From NCBI GenBank assembly GCA_964559265.1, contig CAZLHC010000006.1, positions 28,403 to 92,402 of the forward strand: a stretch of 64,000 bases of DNA. Reading direction: 5' to 3'. This DNA is from an uncultured Paludibacter sp. Its GTDB lineage: Bacteria; Bacteroidota; Bacteroidia; Bacteroidales; Paludibacteraceae. The position numbers and the translations under genes were made by a program. Positions 8,551 through 47,600 of the stretch are shown here, one piece after another. Positions within the stretch are counted from its first letter, which is position 1. Each line of letters starts with the position of its first letter. A model generated the notes under the pieces. It was given only the letters and a program-made list of their open reading frames with translations, was not told the origin of the DNA and searched no databases.

Positions 8551-10392
8551 ATGTGTGGTATTGTAGGGTATATAGGTCATAGAGAGGCCTATCCGATTTT
8601 AATTAAAGGATTACAGCGCCTGGAATACAGGGGCTACGACAGTGCAGGAATTGCACTAATCAGCGAAGGTAACCTAAACGTATACAAAGCCAAGGGGAAA
8701 GTGGCCGAATTGGTCGACTTCGCAAAACAGAAAGATATTACAGGTACCATCGGTATTGCTCACACACGGTGGGCAACGCATGGTGAACCGAATACAGTGA
8801 ATGCACATCCGCACTATTCGCAGTCGGAAGAATTAGCAATCATTCACAACGGCATTATCGAGAATTATGCAGTGCTTAAGCAAGGCTTAATCGAAAATGG
8901 ATTTACTTTTCAAAGTGAAACAGATACCGAAGTGTTGATTCAGTTGATAGAGTTTGTTAAAAAAACGAACGATATTGATTTGACAACTGCGGTTCAACTT
9001 GCTTTAAACCAGGTTGTTGGTGCATATGCAATTGCTGTTTTGGAAAAATCTCGTCCCGATACCCTGGTAGCTGCCCGTAAGGGTTCTCCATTGGTAGTCG
9101 GTTTGGGAGAAGATGAGTTTTTTCTTGCTTCCGATGCTACTCCGATAATTGAATATACCAATCAGGTAGTGTATGTGGGCGAAGAAGAAATTGTTACCTT
9201 GTGTCGTGGTAAAGAACTGAAAATAAAGACGATTTCGAATGTGGCAAAAACTCCGGAAATCAAAAAGCTTGAAATGACGCTGAGTCAGCTCGAAAAAGGG
9301 GGCTATCCGCATTTTATGATTAAGGAGATTTTCGAACAACCTCACACTTTAGCCGATTCGATGCGGGGTCGTGTGAATGTCGACGAAAATAATGTAATTC
9401 TTTCAGGATTTATCGATAACAAAGATAAGTTTTTAAATGCGGGTAGAATAATTATAACTGCCTGTGGAACTTCATGGCATGCCGGCCTTATAGGAATGTA
9501 TGTAATTGAGGAATTTGCACGAATTCCGGTAGAAGTGGAGTACTCGTCGGAATTTCGTTACCGCAAACCGGTAATTTTCCCTAACGATATTGTTATTGCT
9601 ATCTCTCAGTCGGGCGAAACTGCTGATACACTGGCTGCTGTTGAACTCGCCCGGTCGCAGGGGGCTTTTATTTTTGGTATCTGTAATGTGGTGGGATCGT
9701 CGATTCCCCGTAATTCACATTCGGGGGCTTACACACACGTGGGTCCGGAAATTGGTGTGGCTTCTACAAAGGCATTTACAGCTCAGGTAACTGTACTTAC
9801 CATGCTTGCCCTGATGATAGGTCGTGAAAAAGGTACTATGCCTCAGGAGAAATACCTGCAGATTGTACGTGAGCTGGGACGTATTCCTGATAAGATGAAA
9901 ATATTGTTGAATCAAAACGAACGTATTGCACAATTTGCTAAAACGTTTACGTATGCTCAAAACTTTATTTATCTCGGTCGGGGGTATAATTTCCCCGTAG
10001 CACTCGAAGGTGCACTCAAATTGAAAGAAATATCGTATATTCATGCCGAAGGTTATCCGGCAGCCGAAATGAAACATGGCCCGATAGCCCTGATTAGTCA
10101 GGAAATGCCGGTGGTGGCCATTGCGCCCAATACCGGAATGTACGAAAAAGTAGTAAGTAATATCCAGGAAATAAAGGCCCGAAAGGGAAAAATAATTGCT
10201 ATTGTCACTGAAGGCGACGAAGTAGTGAAAAACCTGGCCGATTACTGCATCGAAATCCCGGATACCGAAGAATGTCTGGTGCCTTTGCTGGCCACCATAC
10301 CTCTTCAGTTGATGGCTTATCACATTGCGGTTGTGAAAGGCTGCGATGTCGATCAGCCCCGAAATCTGGCGAAATCGGTTACTGTGGAGTAA
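8551..10392 (+). CDS. glmS: Glutamine--fructose-6-phosphate transaminase (isomerizing)
   Basis: MCGIVGY, LEYRGYDSAG, HTRWATHG, SQSGETADT, QPRNLAKSVTVE. Confidence 0.98.
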   Translation: MCGIVGYIGHREAYPILIKGLQRLEYRGYDSAGIALISEGNLNVYKAKGKVAELVDFAKQKDITGTIGIAHTRWATHGEPNTVNAHPHYSQSEELAIIHNGIIENYAVLKQGLIENGFTFQSETDTEVLIQLIEFVKKTNDIDLTTAVQLALNQVVGAYAIAVLEKSRPDTLVAARKGSPLVVGLGEDEFFLASDATPIIEYTNQVVYVGEEEIVTLCRGKELKIKTISNVAKTPEIKKLEMTLSQLEKGGYPHFMIKEIFEQPHTLADSMRGRVNVDENNVILSGFIDNKDKFLNAGRIIITACGTSWHAGLIGMYVIEEFARIPVEVEYSSEFRYRKPVIFPNDIVIAISQSGETADTLAAVELARSQGAFIFGICNVVGSSIPRNSHSGAYTHVGPEIGVASTKAFTAQVTVLTMLALMIGREKGTMPQEKYLQIVRELGRIPDKMKILLNQNERIAQFAKTFTYAQNFIYLGRGYNFPVALEGALKLKEISYIHAEGYPAAEMKHGPIALISQEMPVVAIAPNTGMYEKVVSNIQEIKARKGKIIAIVTEGDEVVKNLADYCIEIPDTEECLVPLLATIPLQLMAYHIAVVKGCDVDQPRNLAKSVTVE

Positions 10393-12673: not shown

Positions 12674-13768
12674 ATGACTATTCGTAATCTGACGGATACA
12701 CTTGAACAACTGGCACCTTTGTCGCTTCAGGAAAAATACGACAATGCCGGTTTACTGGTAGGAGAGCCTTTGACACCTGTCAGAGGCGCTCTTATCTGTT
12801 TAGATGTAACCGAAAGTGTTATTGATGAGGCTATTGCCTTGGGATGTAATCTTATAATTGCTCATCATCCGCTTATTTTTACCGGATTAAAACGATTGAC
12901 TGCTCAAAATGAGGTACAGCGGTGTGTTGTAAAGGCTATTCGTAATGATATTGCCATCTATGCTGCTCATACAAATCTGGATAATATTGAACAGGGAGTT
13001 AATGGTAAAATAGCTGAAAAGTTAGGGCTCATCGATTGTAAGGTCTTATCTCCGGTTTCTGATGCATTAGTGAAATTGGTAACCTACGTACCTAAACTGA
13101 TGGTACATAAGGTTCGTGAGGCTTTGTTTTCGGCGGGAGCCGGAACTATCGGCAATTACGATTCATGTAGCTATAATTCAGAGGGTTATGGGAGTTTCAG
13201 GGCAGGGGAGAATGCACATCCTTTTGTTGGATTGAAAAATTCTATTCACTACGAACCTGAGGTCAAAGTAGAAGTTATACTTCCAAAATTCCGGTTGGCA
13301 GCGGTATTGAATGCTTTGGTCGAAGCACATCCCTACGAAGAACCAGCTTATGATGTTATTCCTCTGCTAAATCAATGGGCGCAAACCGGAGCCGGATTTG
13401 TAGGTAATCTACCTGCCGAACTTCCTCTGAACGACTTTCTTCATAGCATTAAGGACGTTTTTCAAATTCCAACCATTCGATATACTTCTCCTGTAAAGGA
13501 TAATATTCGTCGGGTTGCTGTGTGTGGAGGTTCCGGAAGTTTTCTCATTAAAGACGCCTTGCAAGCTCAGGCCGATGTTTTTATAACGGCCGATGTAAAG
13601 TACCACGAATTCATGGAAGCAGACGGCCGTATTGTTATTGTTGATGCCGGCCATTATGAAACCGAACAGTATACAAAAGAGTTGATGTATGAGATTATTT
13701 CGAAAAAATTTCCTACCTTTGTACTCCATATTTCAAAAGTAACTACGAATCCCATTCTATATTTGTAA
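12674..13768 (+). CDS. Nif3-like dinuclear metal centre protein (with PII-like insert)
   Basis: YDNAGL, IAHHPLIF, YAAHTNLD, AHPYEEPAYD, GHYETEQ; start MTIRN at 12674. Confidence 0.92.
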   Translation: MTIRNLTDTLEQLAPLSLQEKYDNAGLLVGEPLTPVRGALICLDVTESVIDEAIALGCNLIIAHHPLIFTGLKRLTAQNEVQRCVVKAIRNDIAIYAAHTNLDNIEQGVNGKIAEKLGLIDCKVLSPVSDALVKLVTYVPKLMVHKVREALFSAGAGTIGNYDSCSYNSEGYGSFRAGENAHPFVGLKNSIHYEPEVKVEVILPKFRLAAVLNALVEAHPYEEPAYDVIPLLNQWAQTGAGFVGNLPAELPLNDFLHSIKDVFQIPTIRYTSPVKDNIRRVAVCGGSGSFLIKDALQAQADVFITADVKYHEFMEADGRIVIVDAGHYETEQYTKELMYEIISKKFPTFVLHISKVTTNPILYL

Positions 13769-14543: not shown

Positions 14544-14574
14544 ACCAGTATTCATAAAATCTATTAGCTTAAGT

Positions 14575-14604
14575 AAAGGTTCGAATTTTTCGAACCTTTT
14601 TTTT
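14575..14604 (+). terminator. Intrinsic terminator after the zinc-ribbon gene
   Basis: AAAGGTTCGAA-tttt-TTCGAACCTTT followed by a T-run. Confidence 0.85.
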
Positions 14605-14925
14605 ATTCTAGCTGCTGTATTTCCTAACGAACTTCCGGATAAGCGATAATATCAAATTCTCAGCGTGTTTTATTTCACGTAATTGTCTATATTTCAGATA
14701 GTTTTAGTCTATTTTTCAGAAGTAAAAATTCAATAATTCAGCTATTTTCTACAATTTCGAATTTTATATATAGATTTGTCTTCTAACCGGGTGCTTTTCA
14801 ATAAGCTAGTTTTCTGATTGCCTTGATCCGTAACTTATTTACTTACAATCCCGGCTTTTTTTTATCTGGATATTTTTCATAAGGGTACCCTCTACAAAAA
14901 ATCATACTTTTTTCTTGTTACTTGT

Positions 14926-15062
14926 AACAAATGTATCGTATTTACAAGAGTGAAGCAATCAATTAATATGCATAATTGTGAATTTCTTCGTGTATACATT
15001 TGTAAATAAATAGATAATCACATATGTACATTGTTCAAATTCCGATTATTCTTACAACTGTA
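14926..15062. promoter_or_regulatory. Left cluster of TACA-N2-TGTA palindromic boxes
   Basis: Perfect at 14995 (TACATTTGTA) and 15053 (TACAACTGTA); one mismatch at 14926 and 15019. Confidence 0.7.
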
Positions 15063-15570
15063 ACCAATAAACAAACATAAGTAATGATGTGAAAATTCAT
15101 AGCTGATATATACAGTAAATCAGATGTTTAACTATTAAATTTAAATTATCACTTTAGAAATTAGATAGTATATTCTATCAATCATAGTATTTTTGTGAAT
15201 ATATAGGTATAGTTAATACTTAACTAACTAATAATCAATGATAATGACTACTATTATATAAACAATTACTTTAAATATAGTGCAAGCTTGGTTTTTCGTT
15301 AAAAACTATTCCACATTTAATTGCAAACCAGTATTCAGCATGTTGTACTCTTTATGCTACTTATGGTACTACTTCTTTCCCCTCCTACCAGATTAAAATT
15401 AAGCAGTTGTTATTTATGGTAAATATAACCCACTATATAGCAAATAATTAATGATTATAAACCTTAACTAAATCAAGCTGGGGATTGATCAATAGACTTT
15501 AGTGATATTCATATTATCAGAGTTCATGTAAGAATATTTTTACTATGGTTCCAGCTTATTTACTTCATTA

Positions 15571-15720
15571 AACAGATGTACTTTTTATTCGATGCTTGTA
15601 CTTATGTATTTTAATTACCTTTACAATAGTGAAATTACAATTGTACAGACGTATACACATGTAAATACATTTGTATACTTATGGTATTTGCATTTGTGAA
15701 TTAATTGTTTTACATTTGTA
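15571..15720. promoter_or_regulatory. Right cluster of TACA-N2-TGTA boxes, putative operators upstream of the XRE gene
   Basis: Perfect at 15636, 15654, 15666, 15711; one mismatch at 15571, 15599, 15644. Confidence 0.8.
15687..15718 (+). promoter_or_regulatory. Bacteroidota housekeeping promoter of the XRE gene
   Basis: TTTG (15687-15690), N20, TACATTTG (15711-15718) matches the -33/-7 consensus TTTG...TAnnTTTG, 45 nt before the ATG. Confidence 0.75.
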
Positions 15721-15762
15721 GCCAATTGTTTATACAGTTCTAAACTATAAAATCACTGTATT

Positions 15763-16341
15763 ATGAGTGAAAAAAATCGAATCGAAAAAGTAATTCTTTT
15801 CCAAAACATGACATCCGGTCAGTTTGCTGCCGAAATTGGAATTCAGAATTCTACCCTTTCTCATATTTTGAACAATAGGAATAATCCCAGTCTCGATGTG
15901 CTAAAAAAAATTCTTAGCCGATTTCCTGAGATTAGTACAGACTGGCTTATTTTAGGACAAGGTTCTATGTTACGTCAGGAAAAGCAATCTAAAGAGCCCA
16001 CATTATTCGATTCTTTTGATGAAACTTCTTCATCCTCAGAAAGTTTAGTGGCTGAAAACGTAGTAAAAACTACTCAGCCAAATGCAGAAGTCCAGAAAGA
16101 AATGTTAAAAAGTGATTTCAATCCTGTACAGGAACGACAGAAACCACCCTTGAACGAATCCCGGTCAACAGAAATTAATAATTCAACGCCTCAGCAACGA
16201 AACGATAGTGAAATTTCCCCACAAGTACGAACATTATCAACGGAATTTCCGGTTCGAACTACATCAGAACCTGCACGAAAAGTTACAAAGGTCATATTAT
16301 ATTTTACCGATAATACATACCAGGAATTTGAATCAAAATAA
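15763..16341 (+). CDS. XRE/Cro-CI family HTH transcriptional regulator
   Basis: FAAEIGIQNSTLSHILNNRNNPSLDVL HTH, DWLILGQGSM, low-complexity linker, C-terminal KVTKVILYFTDNTYQEF. Confidence 0.9.
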   Translation: MSEKNRIEKVILFQNMTSGQFAAEIGIQNSTLSHILNNRNNPSLDVLKKILSRFPEISTDWLILGQGSMLRQEKQSKEPTLFDSFDETSSSSESLVAENVVKTTQPNAEVQKEMLKSDFNPVQERQKPPLNESRSTEINNSTPQQRNDSEISPQVRTLSTEFPVRTTSEPARKVTKVILYFTDNTYQEFESK

Positions 16342-16383
16342 TTATCGTATTTTTGCAGTCTGAACATCAAATTTCAAACTTGA

Positions 16384-17151
16384 ATGAAGAAATTCATGAA
16401 CGATCTGGTCGTTGCAGAGAATATTACGCTTAATGACCAGTATTTTTTACTTAAATTAACAGCTGATACACTGCTGCCCGACATGTATCCCGGTCAATTT
16501 GCCGAAGTAAAGGTTGAAGATTCACCCTCTACTTTTCTACGACGCCCTATTTCGATAAATTGGGTCGATCGTCAACGTAATGAGCTGTGGTTACTGATTC
16601 AAATTGTAGGTCAGGGCACCCGTAAACTTAGTATGTTAATCCCGGGTGATACTTTAAACTTAATTTACCCTCTTGGAAACCAATTTTCGTACCCTCCGCA
16701 AAAGAACGCACGAATCCTGTTGGTGGGCGGAGGTGTCGGAATTGCACCTATGCTTTTTTGGGGCTCGCAATTAGCTGCCGAAGGGTATATGCCCAACTTC
16801 CTGATCGGAGGTCGCTCTGCGGCTAATTTGTTGCTTTTAGACGAATTCAACAAGTATGGCAATGTATACGTGACTACTGAAGATGGTTCGGCCGGAGAAA
16901 AAGGGTTTGTTACTAATCATTCTGTATTATCACAATCGTTCGATGCAATTTATACATGCGGGCCAACTCCAATGATGAAAGCAGTGGCTGCTTACGCTAC
17001 TAAAGAAGGTGTTTTCTGCGAAGTTTCACTCGAGAATACGATGGCTTGTGGTTTCGGTGCTTGTCTGTGTTGTGTAACCGATACTGTGGATGGGCATCTG
17101 TGTGTTTGTACTGAAGGTCCGGTCTTTAACATTACAAAATTAAAATGGTAG
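16384..17151 (+). CDS. pyrK: Dihydroorotate dehydrogenase electron transfer subunit
   Basis: [33 protein letters not shown] [2Fe-2S] motif. Confidence 0.95.
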
Positions 17152-18056
17152 ATTTAAGCGTCAAACTTGGAACAATACAATTGAAAAACCCGGTAATGAC
17201 TGCTTCGGGCACATTCGGGTATGGTACAGAGTATTATGATTTTTTTGATGTTTCACGAATAGGAGGTATAGTTGTAAAGGGAACTACTCTTCGCGACCGT
17301 CAGGGTAATAAATATCCTCGTATGGCTGAAACGCCATCGGGCATGTTAAACGCTGTGGGACTGCAAAATAAGGGTGTTAACTACTTCAAAGATCATATTT
17401 ATCCAACACTTTTAGACTTGGATACAAGTATATTTGTGAACGTATCAGGATCAACGGTTGAGGAATATGTTGAAACAGCAGAGTTAATCAACGAATTGAA
17501 CCATATTCCGGGCATTGAGCTCAACATTTCGTGTCCGAATGTGAAAGAAGGTGGAATGACATTTGGAACCAGCTGTCCTTCTGCTGCTCAGGTAGTTAAG
17601 GAGGTGCGAAGGGTGTATAAAAAAGAATTGATGGTTAAGCTTTCGCCAAATGTAACCTCCATTTCAGATATTGCTCTTGCTGTGGAAGCTGAGGGAGCCG
17701 ATTCGGTGTCGTTAATTAACACTTTATTGGGGATGGCCATTAATGCTGAAACACGAAAACCGGTTTTATCGACTGTTACAGGAGGTTTATCGGGACCTGC
17801 TGTTAAGCCCATTGCTTTACGAATGGTGTGGCAGGTTGCTCAGGCTGTGAAGATTCCTGTAATTGGGATGGGAGGAATTATGAATGAGTCAGATGCTATT
17901 GAATTTTTATTGGCTGGTGCATCGGCAATTCAAATTGGTACTGCCAATTTTATTGATCCTACTACTCCGGTTAAAGTATTGGAAGGTATCGAAAACTATA
18001 TGATAAGGCATCGGATTGAAAAAATAACCGATTTGATTGGTGCTTTAGAAATATAA
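17145..18056 (+). CDS. pyrD: Dihydroorotate dehydrogenase 1B catalytic subunit
   Basis: [33 protein letters not shown]. Confidence 0.97.
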
Positions 18057-44633: not shown

Positions 44634-47600
44634 ATGGGATTTAACGATCTTCTGAAAAAAGTCTTTGGCAACAAAGCACAACGCGATTTAAAAGAAATTG
44701 AGCCATATGTTGCAAAAATACGAGCAGCTTACGAAGAAATCAAAAAACTAACCAACGACGAACTTCGACAGCTTACTGAAACTCTCAAACAACAAATTCA
44801 GGAGTATGTAGGTCAGGAAACGAATCGGGTGATAGAATTAAAAGCTTCGGTAGAGTCAACTGAACTTGAACAACGCGAAAAAATCTACACCGAGATAGAT
44901 AAGCTCGAAAAAGATATTTCTTCGAAATTGGAAGAAGTGTTGGAACAAATACTACCACAAGCGTTTTCGATTGTGAAGGAGACTGCCCGTCGTTTTACAG
45001 AAAATTCGGAAACGGTGGTTACAGCTACACAATTTGACAGGGAATTGGCAGTAAAATACGATTTTGTACGAATTGAAGGCGACAAGGCCATCTATAAAAA
45101 CGAATGGCAGGCCGGTGGAAACCTTATCAAATGGGATATGGTTCATTACGACGTGCAGTTGTTTGGTGGGTCGGTGTTGCACAAAGGGAAGATAGCTGAA
45201 ATGGCCACAGGTGAAGGAAAAACGCTGGTGGCTACCCTACCCGTTTTTCTGAATGCACTCACGCGCAGGGGTGTACACTTAGTTACAGTGAACGATTACC
45301 TGTCGAAACGTGACTCGGAATGGATGGGCCCCTTGTATATGTTCCACGGTTTATCGGTAGATTGTATCGACCGTCACCGACCTAATTCAGAAGAACGTCG
45401 TCAGGCTTATCTGGCCGATATCACTTTTGGAACCAATAATGAATTTGGTTTTGATTATTTGCGCGATAATATGGCCACGCACCCTGAAGATCTGGTACAG
45501 CGTAAACATAATTATGCTATTGTGGATGAGGTTGACTCGGTTTTAATTGATGATGCACGTACTCCATTAATTATATCGGGACCGGTGCCAAAGGGCGACG
45601 ATCAGTTGTTTGAAGAAATGCGTCCAAAAGTCGAAAAGCTGGTAAATACTCAAAAAGTATTGGTAACCAAGTATTTGTCGGAAGCACGTGAATTATTGAA
45701 GTCGGACGACGAAAAGAAGCGTGAAGAAGGAGCCCTCTCCTTATTTCGCTCCTAGAAAGGGATGCCTAAAAATAAGCCTTTAATTAAATTTTTGAGCGAA
45801 CAGGGAATTAAAGCGCAATTACTGAAAACGGAAGAGTTTTATATGCAGGAAAACAACAAAAACATGCATATTGCTACGGATCCGTTGTATTTTGTAATCG
45901 ACGAAAAAAACAAAGGGATTAATCTTACCGATAAAGGAATTGACTTAATTACCGGTAATACTGAAGACCCGAAATTTTTCGTTTTGCCGGATGTGGGAAG
46001 TGAAATTGCGGAACTGGAGCGCAATAAAGAACTATCGGCAGAAGATAAGCAAAACCAAAAAGATGAAATCAACCAGAATTATGCAATAAAATCGGAGCGG
46101 GTTCATACGATCAACCAATTATTGAAAGCCTATACCTTGTTTGAGAAAGACATTGAATATGTGGTACTCGACAATAAAGTGAAGATTGTAGATGAGCAGA
46201 CGGGCCGTATTATGGAAGGACGTCGGTATTCGGATGGGTTGCATCAGGCAATTGAAGCCAAAGAAAATGTAAAGATCGAAGCAGCTACTCAGACTTTTGC
46301 TACGATCACGCTTCAGAACTATTTCCGTATGTACAGTAAATTGGCGGGTATGACGGGAACTGCTGAAACAGAAGCAGGTGAATTATGGGACATTTACAAA
46401 TTGGATGTGGTAGTAATTCCTACCAACCGTCCGATTTCACGAAATGACATGGAAGACCGCGTATATAAAACAAAACGCGAAAAATATACAGCTGTAATTG
46501 AGGAAATTGAAGTATTGGTGACAGCTGGTCGTCCGGTATTGGTGGGTACAACTTCAGTTGAAATATCGGAATTATTAAGCAGGATGCTTACTTCCCGTAA
46601 AATTAAGCATAATGTGTTGAATGCTAAGTTGCACCAACGCGAAGCCGATATTGTTGCCGAGGCTGGTCGGAAAGGAACAGTAACTATTGCAACCAATATG
46701 GCTGGTCGTGGAACCGACATTAAGCTCACTCAGGAAGTTAAAGATGCAGGAGGTTTGGCCATTATTGGTACCGAACGTCACGAAAGCCGTCGTGTCGACC
46801 GTCAGTTGCGTGGACGTGCAGGCCGACAGGGGGATCCCGGATCGTCGATATTTTATGTTTCGCTTGAAGATGATTTGATGCGATTGTTTGGTTCGGAACG
46901 AATTTCGTCGGTGATGGACCGCTTAGGATTTAAAGAAGGCGAAATGATTGAGCACTCGATGATCTCCAAATCGATTGAACGTGCACAGAAAAAAGTAGAA
47001 GAAAACAACTTTGGTATTCGTAAACGCTTATTGGAATACGATGATGTGATGAATTCGCAGCGTGAGGTTATCTATTCGCGTCGCCGGCACGCCCTTATGG
47101 GTGAACGGATTGGGATGGATATAACCAACATGATTTACGAAGTATCCGATGGAGTGGTTGAAACTGCCAGAAACGACAACGACTATGCGATGTTGGAAGA
47201 TGAGGTATTGAAGTTATTTGCAATCGATGTTCCGTTTACTGAAGAGCAGTTTTTAGCAGGAAAACAAAACGACTTGTCGACCAGACTTATCACTGAAGTT
47301 ATGGCTGCCTTCAAGCGTAAAATGGACAAATTGGCTTCTATCGCTTACCCGGTGATTAAACAAGTATATGAAAACCAGGGTAAACAATACGAGAATATTC
47401 TGGTGCCCATTACCGATGGAAAACGAATGTTCAATGTTTCAACTCATCTGGCCACAGCCTATGAGACCGGAGCTAAAGAAGTTGTAAAATCATTTGAGAA
47501 ACAAACGCTTTTGTATATTATCGATGACGAATGGAAAGAGCATCTTCGTCAGCTGGATGAATTACGCAATTCGGTTCAAAATGCTTCGTACGAACAAAAA

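Follow-up and report, generated by a model that had tools for sequence, protein, structure and literature searches.

The window considered here is a 64,000-nucleotide stretch of an uncultured Paludibacter sp. genome (contig CAZLHC010000006.1), and the element in question is a long, AT-rich, gene-free region that precedes a gene for a small XRE-family protein and carries two clusters of a short palindrome, TACA-WW-TGTA, hereafter the box. Rather than having arisen by chance, the arrangement most probably represents a self-regulating genetic switch that has yet to be described. The reading that we favour, with a probability of roughly 0.55, is that the region is the multi-operator cis-regulatory region of this conserved XRE gene and that it is bound by the product of the same gene, a proposal drawn from comparison of the locus with those of its relatives.

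The gap, 14544-15762, is bounded on the left by the stop codon of a Zn-ribbon (DUF164-type) gene and on the right by the start codon of the 192-aa XRE-family gene. Its AT-rich part (14600-15762) has a guanine-plus-cytosine (GC) content of 0.27 and a longest open reading frame (ORF) of at most 38 aa; a hidden small gene anywhere in 14544-15762 was ruled out, as all the ORFs there are of 38 aa or less. Within 14926-15742, six perfect and six one-mismatch copies of TACANNTGTA form a distal cluster (14926-15062) and a proximal one (15571-15742), with 508 bp between them. The features are given below, where L091 and L092 denote a relative whose XRE protein is 65% identical to that of the window.

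14926-14935, unstranded: distal box AACAAATGTA, one mismatch, from the box scan
14995-15004, unstranded: distal box TACATTTGTA, perfect, kept as TACAATTGTA in L091/L092
15019-15028, unstranded: distal box CACATATGTA, one mismatch, conserved in L091/L092
15053-15062, unstranded: distal box TACAACTGTA, perfect, from the box scan
15063-15570, unstranded: AT-rich inter-cluster segment of 508 bp, with neither ORF nor stable RNA fold
15571-15580, unstranded: proximal box AACAGATGTA, one mismatch, from the box scan
15599-15608, unstranded: proximal box TACTTATGTA, one mismatch, from the box scan
15636-15645, unstranded: proximal box TACAATTGTA, perfect, present as TACAAATGTA in L091
15644-15653, unstranded: proximal box TACAGACGTA, one mismatch, sharing 2 nt with the 15636 box, not conserved in L091
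15654-15663, unstranded: proximal box TACACATGTA, perfect, present as TACATATGTA in L091
15666-15675, unstranded: proximal box TACATTTGTA, perfect, its centre some 54 nt before the predicted transcription start, which is placed near 15723-15727
15711-15720, plus strand: box TACATTTGTA, perfect, coinciding with the predicted -7 element TACATTTG (15711-15718) of the XRE promoter
15733-15742, unstranded: box TACAGTTCTA with one mismatch, located within the predicted 5' leader, not conserved in L091

The local null model consisted of 2000 dinucleotide-preserving shuffles of 14600-15762, and neither observed count was reached in any of them (0/2000): the shuffles average 0.078 perfect boxes (maximum 2) where six are observed, and 1.69 boxes (maximum 7) at up to one mismatch where 12 are observed. 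Across the 64-kb window there are seven perfect boxes against 0.93 expected, six of which lie in 14926-15742, while the seventh, at 46487, has GC as its central two bases. A repeat search of the region returned, beyond the box itself, only short box-derived or chance pairs. A preliminary description of this DNA, made from the letters alone, had listed six perfect boxes (14995, 15053, 15636, 15654, 15666 and 15711) and five with one mismatch (14926, 15019, 15571, 15599 and 15644) in two clusters about 500 bp apart, and had estimated by hand that about 0.05 perfect copies would be expected. All of these boxes were found where it placed them, the spacing and the estimate proved about right, and the box at 15733 comes in addition, although its status is doubtful because of its absence from L091.

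For the comparison with relatives, 80 genomic loci encoding related XRE proteins were gathered, and 50 upstream regions of 1 kb, all from Paludibacteraceae, were used for box counts. Almost every one of the related loci has an ORF-free region of 0.85-1.05 kb, with a GC content of 0.17-0.30, before its XRE gene. The 50 orthologous regions hold 122 perfect boxes against 3.5 expected, and 47 of them hold at least one, so that two of the three tests that the preliminary description had named as capable of refuting its proposal, namely enrichment over a shuffled AT-rich background (6 vs 0.078) and presence upstream of XRE orthologues (47/50), came out in its favour. The flanking DNA outside the upstream regions has 20 boxes in 483 kb, and six of these 20 are one conserved D-T-N-V coding stretch in pyrD. 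An unbiased k-mer count placed TACAAATGTA/TACATTTGTA first, with an enrichment of about 70-fold. The palindrome arms TACA/TGTA hold as originally proposed, but the central two bases, taken at first to be free, are AA or TT in 97 of the 142 family boxes (AA in 59, TT in 38), which gives the motif TACA-WW-TGTA; the flanks contribute little beyond a slight preference for T on the left of the box and A on its right.

The positions of the boxes are also shared. In the family they fall in two clusters, from -575 to -500 and from -150 to -75 relative to the XRE ATG, and in the window's clade, where the region is longer, the distal cluster lies near -770 to -700. Between the window and the relative with the 65% identical XRE protein (L091/L092) the spacer has strongly diverged, and the core bases of the perfect boxes are 90% identical against 40% at other spacer positions (Fisher p = 1.6e-10), a comparison that covered the spacer upstream of the promoter-proximal 80 nt; at the level of aligned sequence, purifying selection on the TACA-WW-TGTA boxes is thereby shown.

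Closer relatives bear on two further explanations, namely that the clusters are the recombination sites of an invertible, phase-variable segment or that the region encodes a structured non-coding RNA, both of which we find hardly credible. The same palindromic motif does bracket a segment of some 500 bp, and invertible promoters are numerous in Bacteroidales. Against this, ten contigs from independent samples, with XRE proteins 95-99% identical to that of the window, are all collinear with it, and no recombinase gene lies in the neighbourhood; the invertible segment was rejected on the collinearity of these relatives. A structured or known-family RNA was likewise rejected, as no Rfam match was better than E = 0.69 and the folding z-scores of 0.02, -0.86, 0.55 and 1.42, from both strands, reveal no excess stability over shuffled sequence.

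The array is linked to the XRE gene and to the genes that follow it, which in the window are:

16384-17151, plus strand: pyrK, class-1B dihydroorotate dehydrogenase, with pyrD
17145-18056, plus strand: pyrD, class-1B dihydroorotate dehydrogenase, with pyrK

The order XRE-pyrK-pyrD is kept in 48 of 49 loci, and the upstream order DUF5606-NIF3-Zn-ribbon in 45 of 49. The AT-rich region and its boxes persist where the upstream neighbour differs (L036, L063 and L079), so the array follows the XRE gene and not the upstream operon.

A metagenome scan for exact tandem TACAWWTGTA pairs extended this picture beyond Paludibacteraceae. Among the 80 loci listed (L095-L174), almost all are ORF-poor, microsatellite-like DNA rich in TACA/TGTA, probably eukaryotic and unrelated to XRE, so that pattern scans of this type call for a taxonomic filter; the exception, L124, led to a second, Mariniphaga-like branch, whose XRE proteins are about 24-30% identical. 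In this branch the upstream gene encodes a 959-aa protein and is followed by XRE, pyrK-pyrD and a beta-lactamase-family gene. The gene-free region there measures 0.9-1.2 kb, and six examples of it contain 17 boxes altogether, where chance predicts 0.28. Moreover, two tandem boxes 13 nt apart overlap the pyrD stop codon, 2.3 kb downstream and before the beta-lactamase-family gene:

L215, 6285-6308: box pair at the pyrD stop
L216, 6286-6309: box pair at the pyrD stop
L221, 6213-6236: box pair at the pyrD stop
L124, 2605-2627: box pair at the pyrD stop

The box at this stop codon is kept while the last residues of PyrD change (LQM, LHL, LQL), an indication that what is selected is the DNA and not the protein sequence. 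In a third branch, the XRE protein is 32% identical, the downstream gene encodes a 345-aa class-2 PyrD instead of pyrK-pyrD, and the region is only 463 nt long, with distal boxes at -319, -297 and -267 and proximal ones at -74 and -61. The XRE gene thus stands directly upstream of a dihydroorotate dehydrogenase gene in all three of these deeply diverged branches of the Bacteroidia (15763-18056 in the window; L215-L223), and this suggests that the XRE family is functionally tied to the dihydroorotate dehydrogenase step of pyrimidine synthesis.

The proximal cluster is built around the predicted promoter of the XRE gene, whose spacer also holds part of a second motif:

15687-15690, plus strand: predicted -33 element TTTG of the XRE promoter, from the TTTG/TAnnTTTG scan
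15694-15700, plus strand: TTGTGAA in the promoter spacer, left half of the palindrome ATATGTGAA-N4-TTCACATAT, whose right arm is degenerate in the window
14977-14983, plus strand: TGTGAAT, distal-cluster copy of the other enriched motif (TGTGAA/TTCACA), identified in the sequence

In the window, the TTTG at 15687-15690 is followed by a spacer of 20 nt and by the -7 element TACATTTG at 15711-15718, so that the 15711 box is, as had been suggested, also the -7 element of a promoter of the Bacteroidetes type, and such a promoter occupies the same place in 40 of the 50 loci. In these 40 loci the pattern TTTG-N17-23-TAnnTTTG ends 26-50 nt before the ATG; a -7 element is present in essentially all loci, and 15687-15724, which spans the promoter, hardly differs even in L091. 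A scan of both strands of the 50 regions for full promoters found no other position with a conserved complete one; an earlier scan for sigma-70-type promoters, which is unsuited to Bacteroidetes, gave a chance-level result (12 vs 10.5) and was replaced by the TTTG/TAnnTTTG scan. The perfect boxes at 15666, 15654 and 15636 sit immediately upstream of the -33 element. Many relatives have TATCTTTGTA as their -7 element instead, which differs from the box at two positions, and it is in those relatives that the promoter spacer carries the palindrome ATATGTGAA-N4-TTCACATAT.

This overlap raises the question of whether the boxes are a cluster of -7-like elements (TAnnTTTG, on either strand) that bind RNA polymerase and form multiple weak or divergent promoters. 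TACATTTG fits TAnnTTTG, the 15711 box is itself a predicted -7 element, and -7-like matches are many, on both strands and in both clusters. We nonetheless consider this explanation very unlikely: a correctly spaced -33 TTTG is found at the XRE promoter and almost never elsewhere, the boxes fix the two free positions as CA and need a trailing TA, which makes a dyad and points to a dimeric protein rather than to sigma, and both orientations of the centre occur (AA in 59 boxes, TT in 38).

The second motif, TGTGAA/TTCACA, is enriched at both box clusters, with 3.4 copies per kb inside against 0.83 outside, so more than one factor may act at the XRE control region. In 13 relatives its complete form, ATATGTGAA-N4-TTCACATAT, is perfect and lies about -67 from the XRE start, between -33 and -7:

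L006, L011, L015, L018, L023, L033, L034, L037, L041-L043, L045 and L062: loci with the complete spacer palindrome

Its core, TGTGAA-N4-TTCACA, matches the published Rex operator consensus TTGTGAANNNNTTCACAA (PMC5355995). The core common to the Rex operator is that of this spacer palindrome, i.e., of the second motif and not of the TACAWWTGTA box, and the window holds the left half-site only (15694-15700); a further likeness is that the enzyme encoded downstream of XRE is an NAD-linked redox enzyme.

These observations give some weight to a different assignment, in which the boxes are real operators of an unlinked factor, e.g., a global or nucleotide-responsive regulator, and XRE is simply the first regulated gene and may bind TGTGAA-N4-TTCACA instead. 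We regard this as a genuine though minor possibility. It would fit the co-clustering of the second motif with the boxes, the canonically spaced palindrome between -33 and -7 in the 13 relatives, and the distance of 6 bp between the half-sites of the box, which is atypical of Cro/C1-type dimers; the resemblance to the Rex operator indicates, in addition, that at least one other factor probably acts. On the other hand, the box stays with XRE in three branches while the neighbours, the spacer length and the type of dihydroorotate dehydrogenase change; no other conserved DNA-binding gene was found near XRE in the neighbourhoods examined; and the palindrome is gone from the window's clade, where the boxes are kept.

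The assignment of the boxes to the XRE protein draws on the protein itself:

15763-16341, plus strand: XRE-family gene, 192 aa, with a helix-turn-helix (HTH) domain at residues 1-70, a linker at about 80-170 and a hairpin at 176-190, RKVTKVILYFTDNTYQEFESK

The Pfam match above the cut-off is HTH_3 only (E = 5.7e-10), and no Pfam domain beyond the HTH, such as a CI-type/S24 C-terminal oligomerisation or peptidase domain, was found in the 192 residues. AlphaFold2, run with the family alignment, predicts a five-helix domain at residues 1-70 with a predicted local distance difference test (pLDDT) score above 90, disorder at 83-168 (pLDDT below 50) and a C-terminal beta-hairpin at 176-190 (pLDDT 81-91). 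The top Foldseek matches of the HTH domain are 434 repressor/Cro, SinR, DdrO, P22 c2 and C.Esp1396I, and the sole match of the family profile in the PDB sequences is the designed HTH protein 8tac. At E <= 1e-30 the profile retrieves 774 clusters (50% identity), and some of the relatives (P0330, P0331, P0340 and P0341) are proteins of 349-546 aa with four to six tandem copies of the HTH domain. Invariant in all branches are the helix-3 region IG(I/V)Q-S--SH--N-RN-PS, a WL-G-G motif and the hairpin core D-TF, and the linker varies. In particular, residues Q28, S30, S33, H34, N37, R39 and N40 of the recognition helix are invariant in three branches, where the rest of the protein is 24-32% identical. 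A conserved reading head and a conserved box are the pattern expected of a cognate pair; neither varies, so this falls short of proof by covariation.

The spacing of the boxes offers a hint as to how they may be occupied. In the 50 Paludibacteraceae regions together with L215-L224, neighbouring perfect boxes tend to be about 15, 30, 45 or 90 bp apart, with a period of 15-15.5 bp and a vector strength of 0.52-0.62, for which the nominal p of about 1e-6 is overstated since the loci are related. A lattice of about 15 bp, which is not the helical repeat, suggests side-by-side binding.

On the favoured reading of an autoregulated XRE gene, the mechanism would be as follows. The TACA-WW-TGTA palindrome, which is under purifying selection, would serve as a protein-binding site, and the adjacent XRE protein would be the binder, given that its recognition helix is invariant wherever the same box is kept. 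Occupancy of the proximal boxes would tune transcription of XRE: a protein on the box that overlaps the -7 element, in the window's clade, would repress, and boxes centred about 54-84 nt upstream of the start might have either effect, activation or repression. The distal cluster, 250-650 bp away, may provide auxiliary operators that raise the local concentration of the repressor or form loops, and the design of the protein, an HTH domain with no adjacent dimerisation domain, a flexible linker of about 100 residues and a C-terminal hairpin, would suit bridging, with the short beta-hairpin able to self-associate or to dock a partner. Finally, there is no terminator between XRE and the dihydroorotate dehydrogenase gene or genes in the three branches, and read-through from XRE would therefore couple the switch to pyrimidine synthesis.

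A bolder version of this mechanism is also conceivable, although we think it rather unlikely. The XRE protein would then be a new bridging regulator whose monomers bind the close-set half-sites of TACA-WW-TGTA on opposite faces of the DNA and polymerise on the 15-bp lattice, with the hairpins joining the arrays into a looped or condensed particle; the whole would be an ancient, Bacteroidia-wide switch linked to dihydroorotate dehydrogenase, in a pyrimidine or redox circuit, and might also be a fixed chromosomal landmark.

Among known systems, the multi-operator Cro/C1 repressors (lambda CI at OR/OL, phage 434, TP901-1 CI and C proteins, e.g., C.Esp1396I) have the Cro/C1-type HTH fold in common with the XRE protein, and they are alike in having clustered palindromes at their own promoter and a second, distant cluster. 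The 434 operators have an ACAA half-site, to which the half-site of the box, ACA(A/T), is similar, and the combination of a -7 box with upstream boxes in the window recalls lambda PRM, where some sites activate and another represses. The differences are equally clear. Cro/C1 systems occur in a prophage or restriction-modification context, whereas housekeeping genes surround the XRE gene; lambda CI has a C-terminal oligomerisation/peptidase domain for cooperative and octameric binding, whereas the XRE protein has in that place a beta-hairpin of some 15 residues at the end of its disordered linker; and the half-sites of Cro/C1 operators are about 10 bp apart, against 6 bp in the box. The conserved spacer of about 1 kb with its extra conserved blocks, and a dihydroorotate dehydrogenase as the downstream partner, are also unlike these systems. 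For these reasons, the lambda OL/OR analogy of the preliminary description can be retained only loosely, since there is neither a prophage context nor a CI-type C-terminal domain. Its proposal of a multi-operator autoregulatory region of XRE is the one best supported by the comparison, in view of the box, the layout and the XRE gene being shared by three branches and of the conserved boxes, promoter and helix, with the binding itself remaining inferred.

The looping repressors (lac O1/O2/O3, gal OE/OI and deo O1/O2/OE) are similar in having promoter operators together with auxiliary sets hundreds of bp away, and the lac and gal operators that lie in or after genes can be likened to the tandem pair at the pyrD end of the Mariniphaga-like branch, 2.3 kb downstream. 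Their regulators are of a different family and architecture, the sites at the XRE locus are more numerous and variable in number, and looping is here a proposal.

A third comparison is with centromere-like arrays (R1 parC/ParR, the heptads of omega protein and type Ib partition sites), in which short repeats form two blocks around or upstream of the binder's promoter on a regular lattice, much as at the XRE gene. It leads to an alternative raised from the start, namely that the arrays are an architectural or centromere-like landmark, coated at both clusters by XRE, whose flexible tails would recruit a partner or bridge DNA, with autoregulation being secondary. A DNA-binding domain followed by a long disordered linker and a short conserved C-terminal peptide is the architecture that tethering hub proteins have, the region is large (about 1 kb), conserved in length and apparently unique within neighbourhoods of 10-64 kb, and the lattice of about 15 bp and the conserved blocks between the clusters would also agree with such a role. 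This explanation appears unlikely for several reasons. Centromere-like systems have a partner nucleoside triphosphatase (NTPase) gene and a ribbon-helix-helix binder, whereas here the repeats are palindromes with a putative HTH binder, and no ParA/ParM-type NTPase, SMC-related or membrane-anchor gene is nearby. Furthermore, the proximal boxes are placed exactly at the promoter, the region shrinks to 463 nt in the third branch, and the locus is chromosomal, with conserved housekeeping synteny and a metabolic gene as its conserved partner.

Returning to the autoregulatory reading, several points weigh against it. The pairing of XRE with the box rests on co-localisation and co-conservation, and the invariance of the recognition helix leaves no true covariation test with the box. 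The half-sites TACA and TGTA are 6 bp apart from centre to centre, against about 10 bp for classical Cro/C1 dimers, so binding would have to be unconventional, e.g., on opposite faces of the helix, and the spacer palindrome of the 13 relatives, with its canonical 10-bp spacing, could be the XRE operator rather than the box. Part of the signal also overlaps promoter-like sequence, in that a box with a TT centre contains the Bacteroidetes -7 consensus TAnnTTTG. The pyrK gene has a promoter of its own without boxes, and thus the tie to pyrimidine synthesis is positional only, and the one metagenome scan that might have revealed boxes elsewhere, as in a regulon, was swamped by microsatellite-like DNA. 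The main uncertainty concerns which protein binds which of the two motifs.

The promoter of pyrK just mentioned lies at the XRE-pyrK junction:

16327-16355, plus strand: predicted pyrK promoter TTTG-N17-TATTTTTG, overlapping the 3' end of the XRE coding sequence, stop codon included

All 56 loci examined have a -7 element in front of pyrK, and no boxes occur there; a terminator is missing from the junction in 55 of the 56. The -33 TTTG of this promoter falls within the conserved C-terminal E-F-E codons of XRE.

The other genes around XRE in the window are glmS, a purF-like gene, NIF3, the Zn-ribbon gene, an AMP nucleosidase gene and, 3.7 kb downstream, holA, besides pyrK and pyrD. The presence of holA, the long, AT-rich, ORF-free and length-conserved character of the region with its repeated short motifs, and the resemblance of TTCACA to the 3' part of the DnaA box make it necessary to consider a chromosomal replication origin, which the data render highly improbable. 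The perfect DnaA box TTATCCACA is absent from the 50 regions (0 copies), allowing up to one mismatch gives 25 matches where chance predicts 21.9, and the relaxed form TTWTNCACA occurs 18 times against 12.6 expected, with none in the window's region; on these grounds the origin was rejected. The genes on both sides of the region are co-directional, running into it and out of it, and in the third branch the region has only 463 nt. Both flanks have positive GC skew (0.118 and 0.094), but skew at the third codon position follows gene orientation, almost gene by gene over the whole window, so that local GC skew has no power at this scale and cannot place an origin here.

The left edge of the gene-free region and its interior hold further conserved elements:

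14575-14607, plus strand: intrinsic terminator with an 11-bp stem and a T run, from the terminator scan, kept in close relatives
14648-14663, plus strand: left-edge block AATATCAAATTCTCAG, family consensus AAATATTnAATTCTCAG, conserved across the family

The terminator closes the upstream DUF5606-NIF3-Zn-ribbon operon and forms the left edge of the region, and a hairpin with a T run is present at this edge in most relatives. In most Paludibacteraceae loci the left-edge block follows 50-60 nt past the terminator, and it is kept even at loci with a different upstream gene. The Mariniphaga-like branch has a related block, A(A/T)TCTCAG-GGAATA, directly after the hairpin, at about -1012 from the XRE start in L215 and about -880 in L219. 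In the inter-cluster segment, TATTTTTGTGAAT (15188-15200) and a small palindrome, ATCAATGAT (15234-15242), match blocks conserved in the family; blocks such as AAATCAG and TAATCAATGATAAT, the latter containing ATCAATGAT, recur across the family (15110-15125 and 15225-15245 in the window), and the version in L216 is ATCATTGAT.

The locus is best classed with the autoregulated multi-operator regulators of the Cro/C1 type, a known kind. Unusual about it are how close together the half-sites stand, the hairpin at the end of a tether in the protein, a conserved spacer that measures about 1 kb and holds further conserved blocks, and the deep linkage to dihydroorotate dehydrogenase. The design of the XRE protein and the short half-site spacing together suggest a mode of binding unlike that of textbook Cro/C1 repressors. 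Literature searches for the box sequence and for a link between XRE and pyrD returned nothing relevant, in agreement with the initial impression that no described system matches, and, to our knowledge, the control of pyrimidine synthesis in Bacteroidia is undescribed. For a large group, to which gut as well as environmental anaerobes belong, the analysis yields a precise prediction of a regulator and its operator, and the conserved spacer would offer a natural setting, neither phage nor enteric, for studying cooperation between distant operators; if the truth is ordinary autorepression, the annotation is still useful for hundreds of genomes.

Two minor observations concern boxes outside the gene-free region. 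One-mismatch boxes TACCTTTGTA and TATATTTGTA (13714-13723 and 13758-13767), just before the start of the Zn-ribbon gene, resemble ordinary -7 elements (TAnnTTTG); matches of this kind, with a TT centre and one mismatch, thus coincide in part with the general promoter consensus. In L015, two perfect boxes 14 nt apart (9960-9983) occur some 5 kb past the XRE gene in a further AT-rich intergenic stretch, beside a gene with an HSDR_N domain, and this pair could be a second target in that genome.

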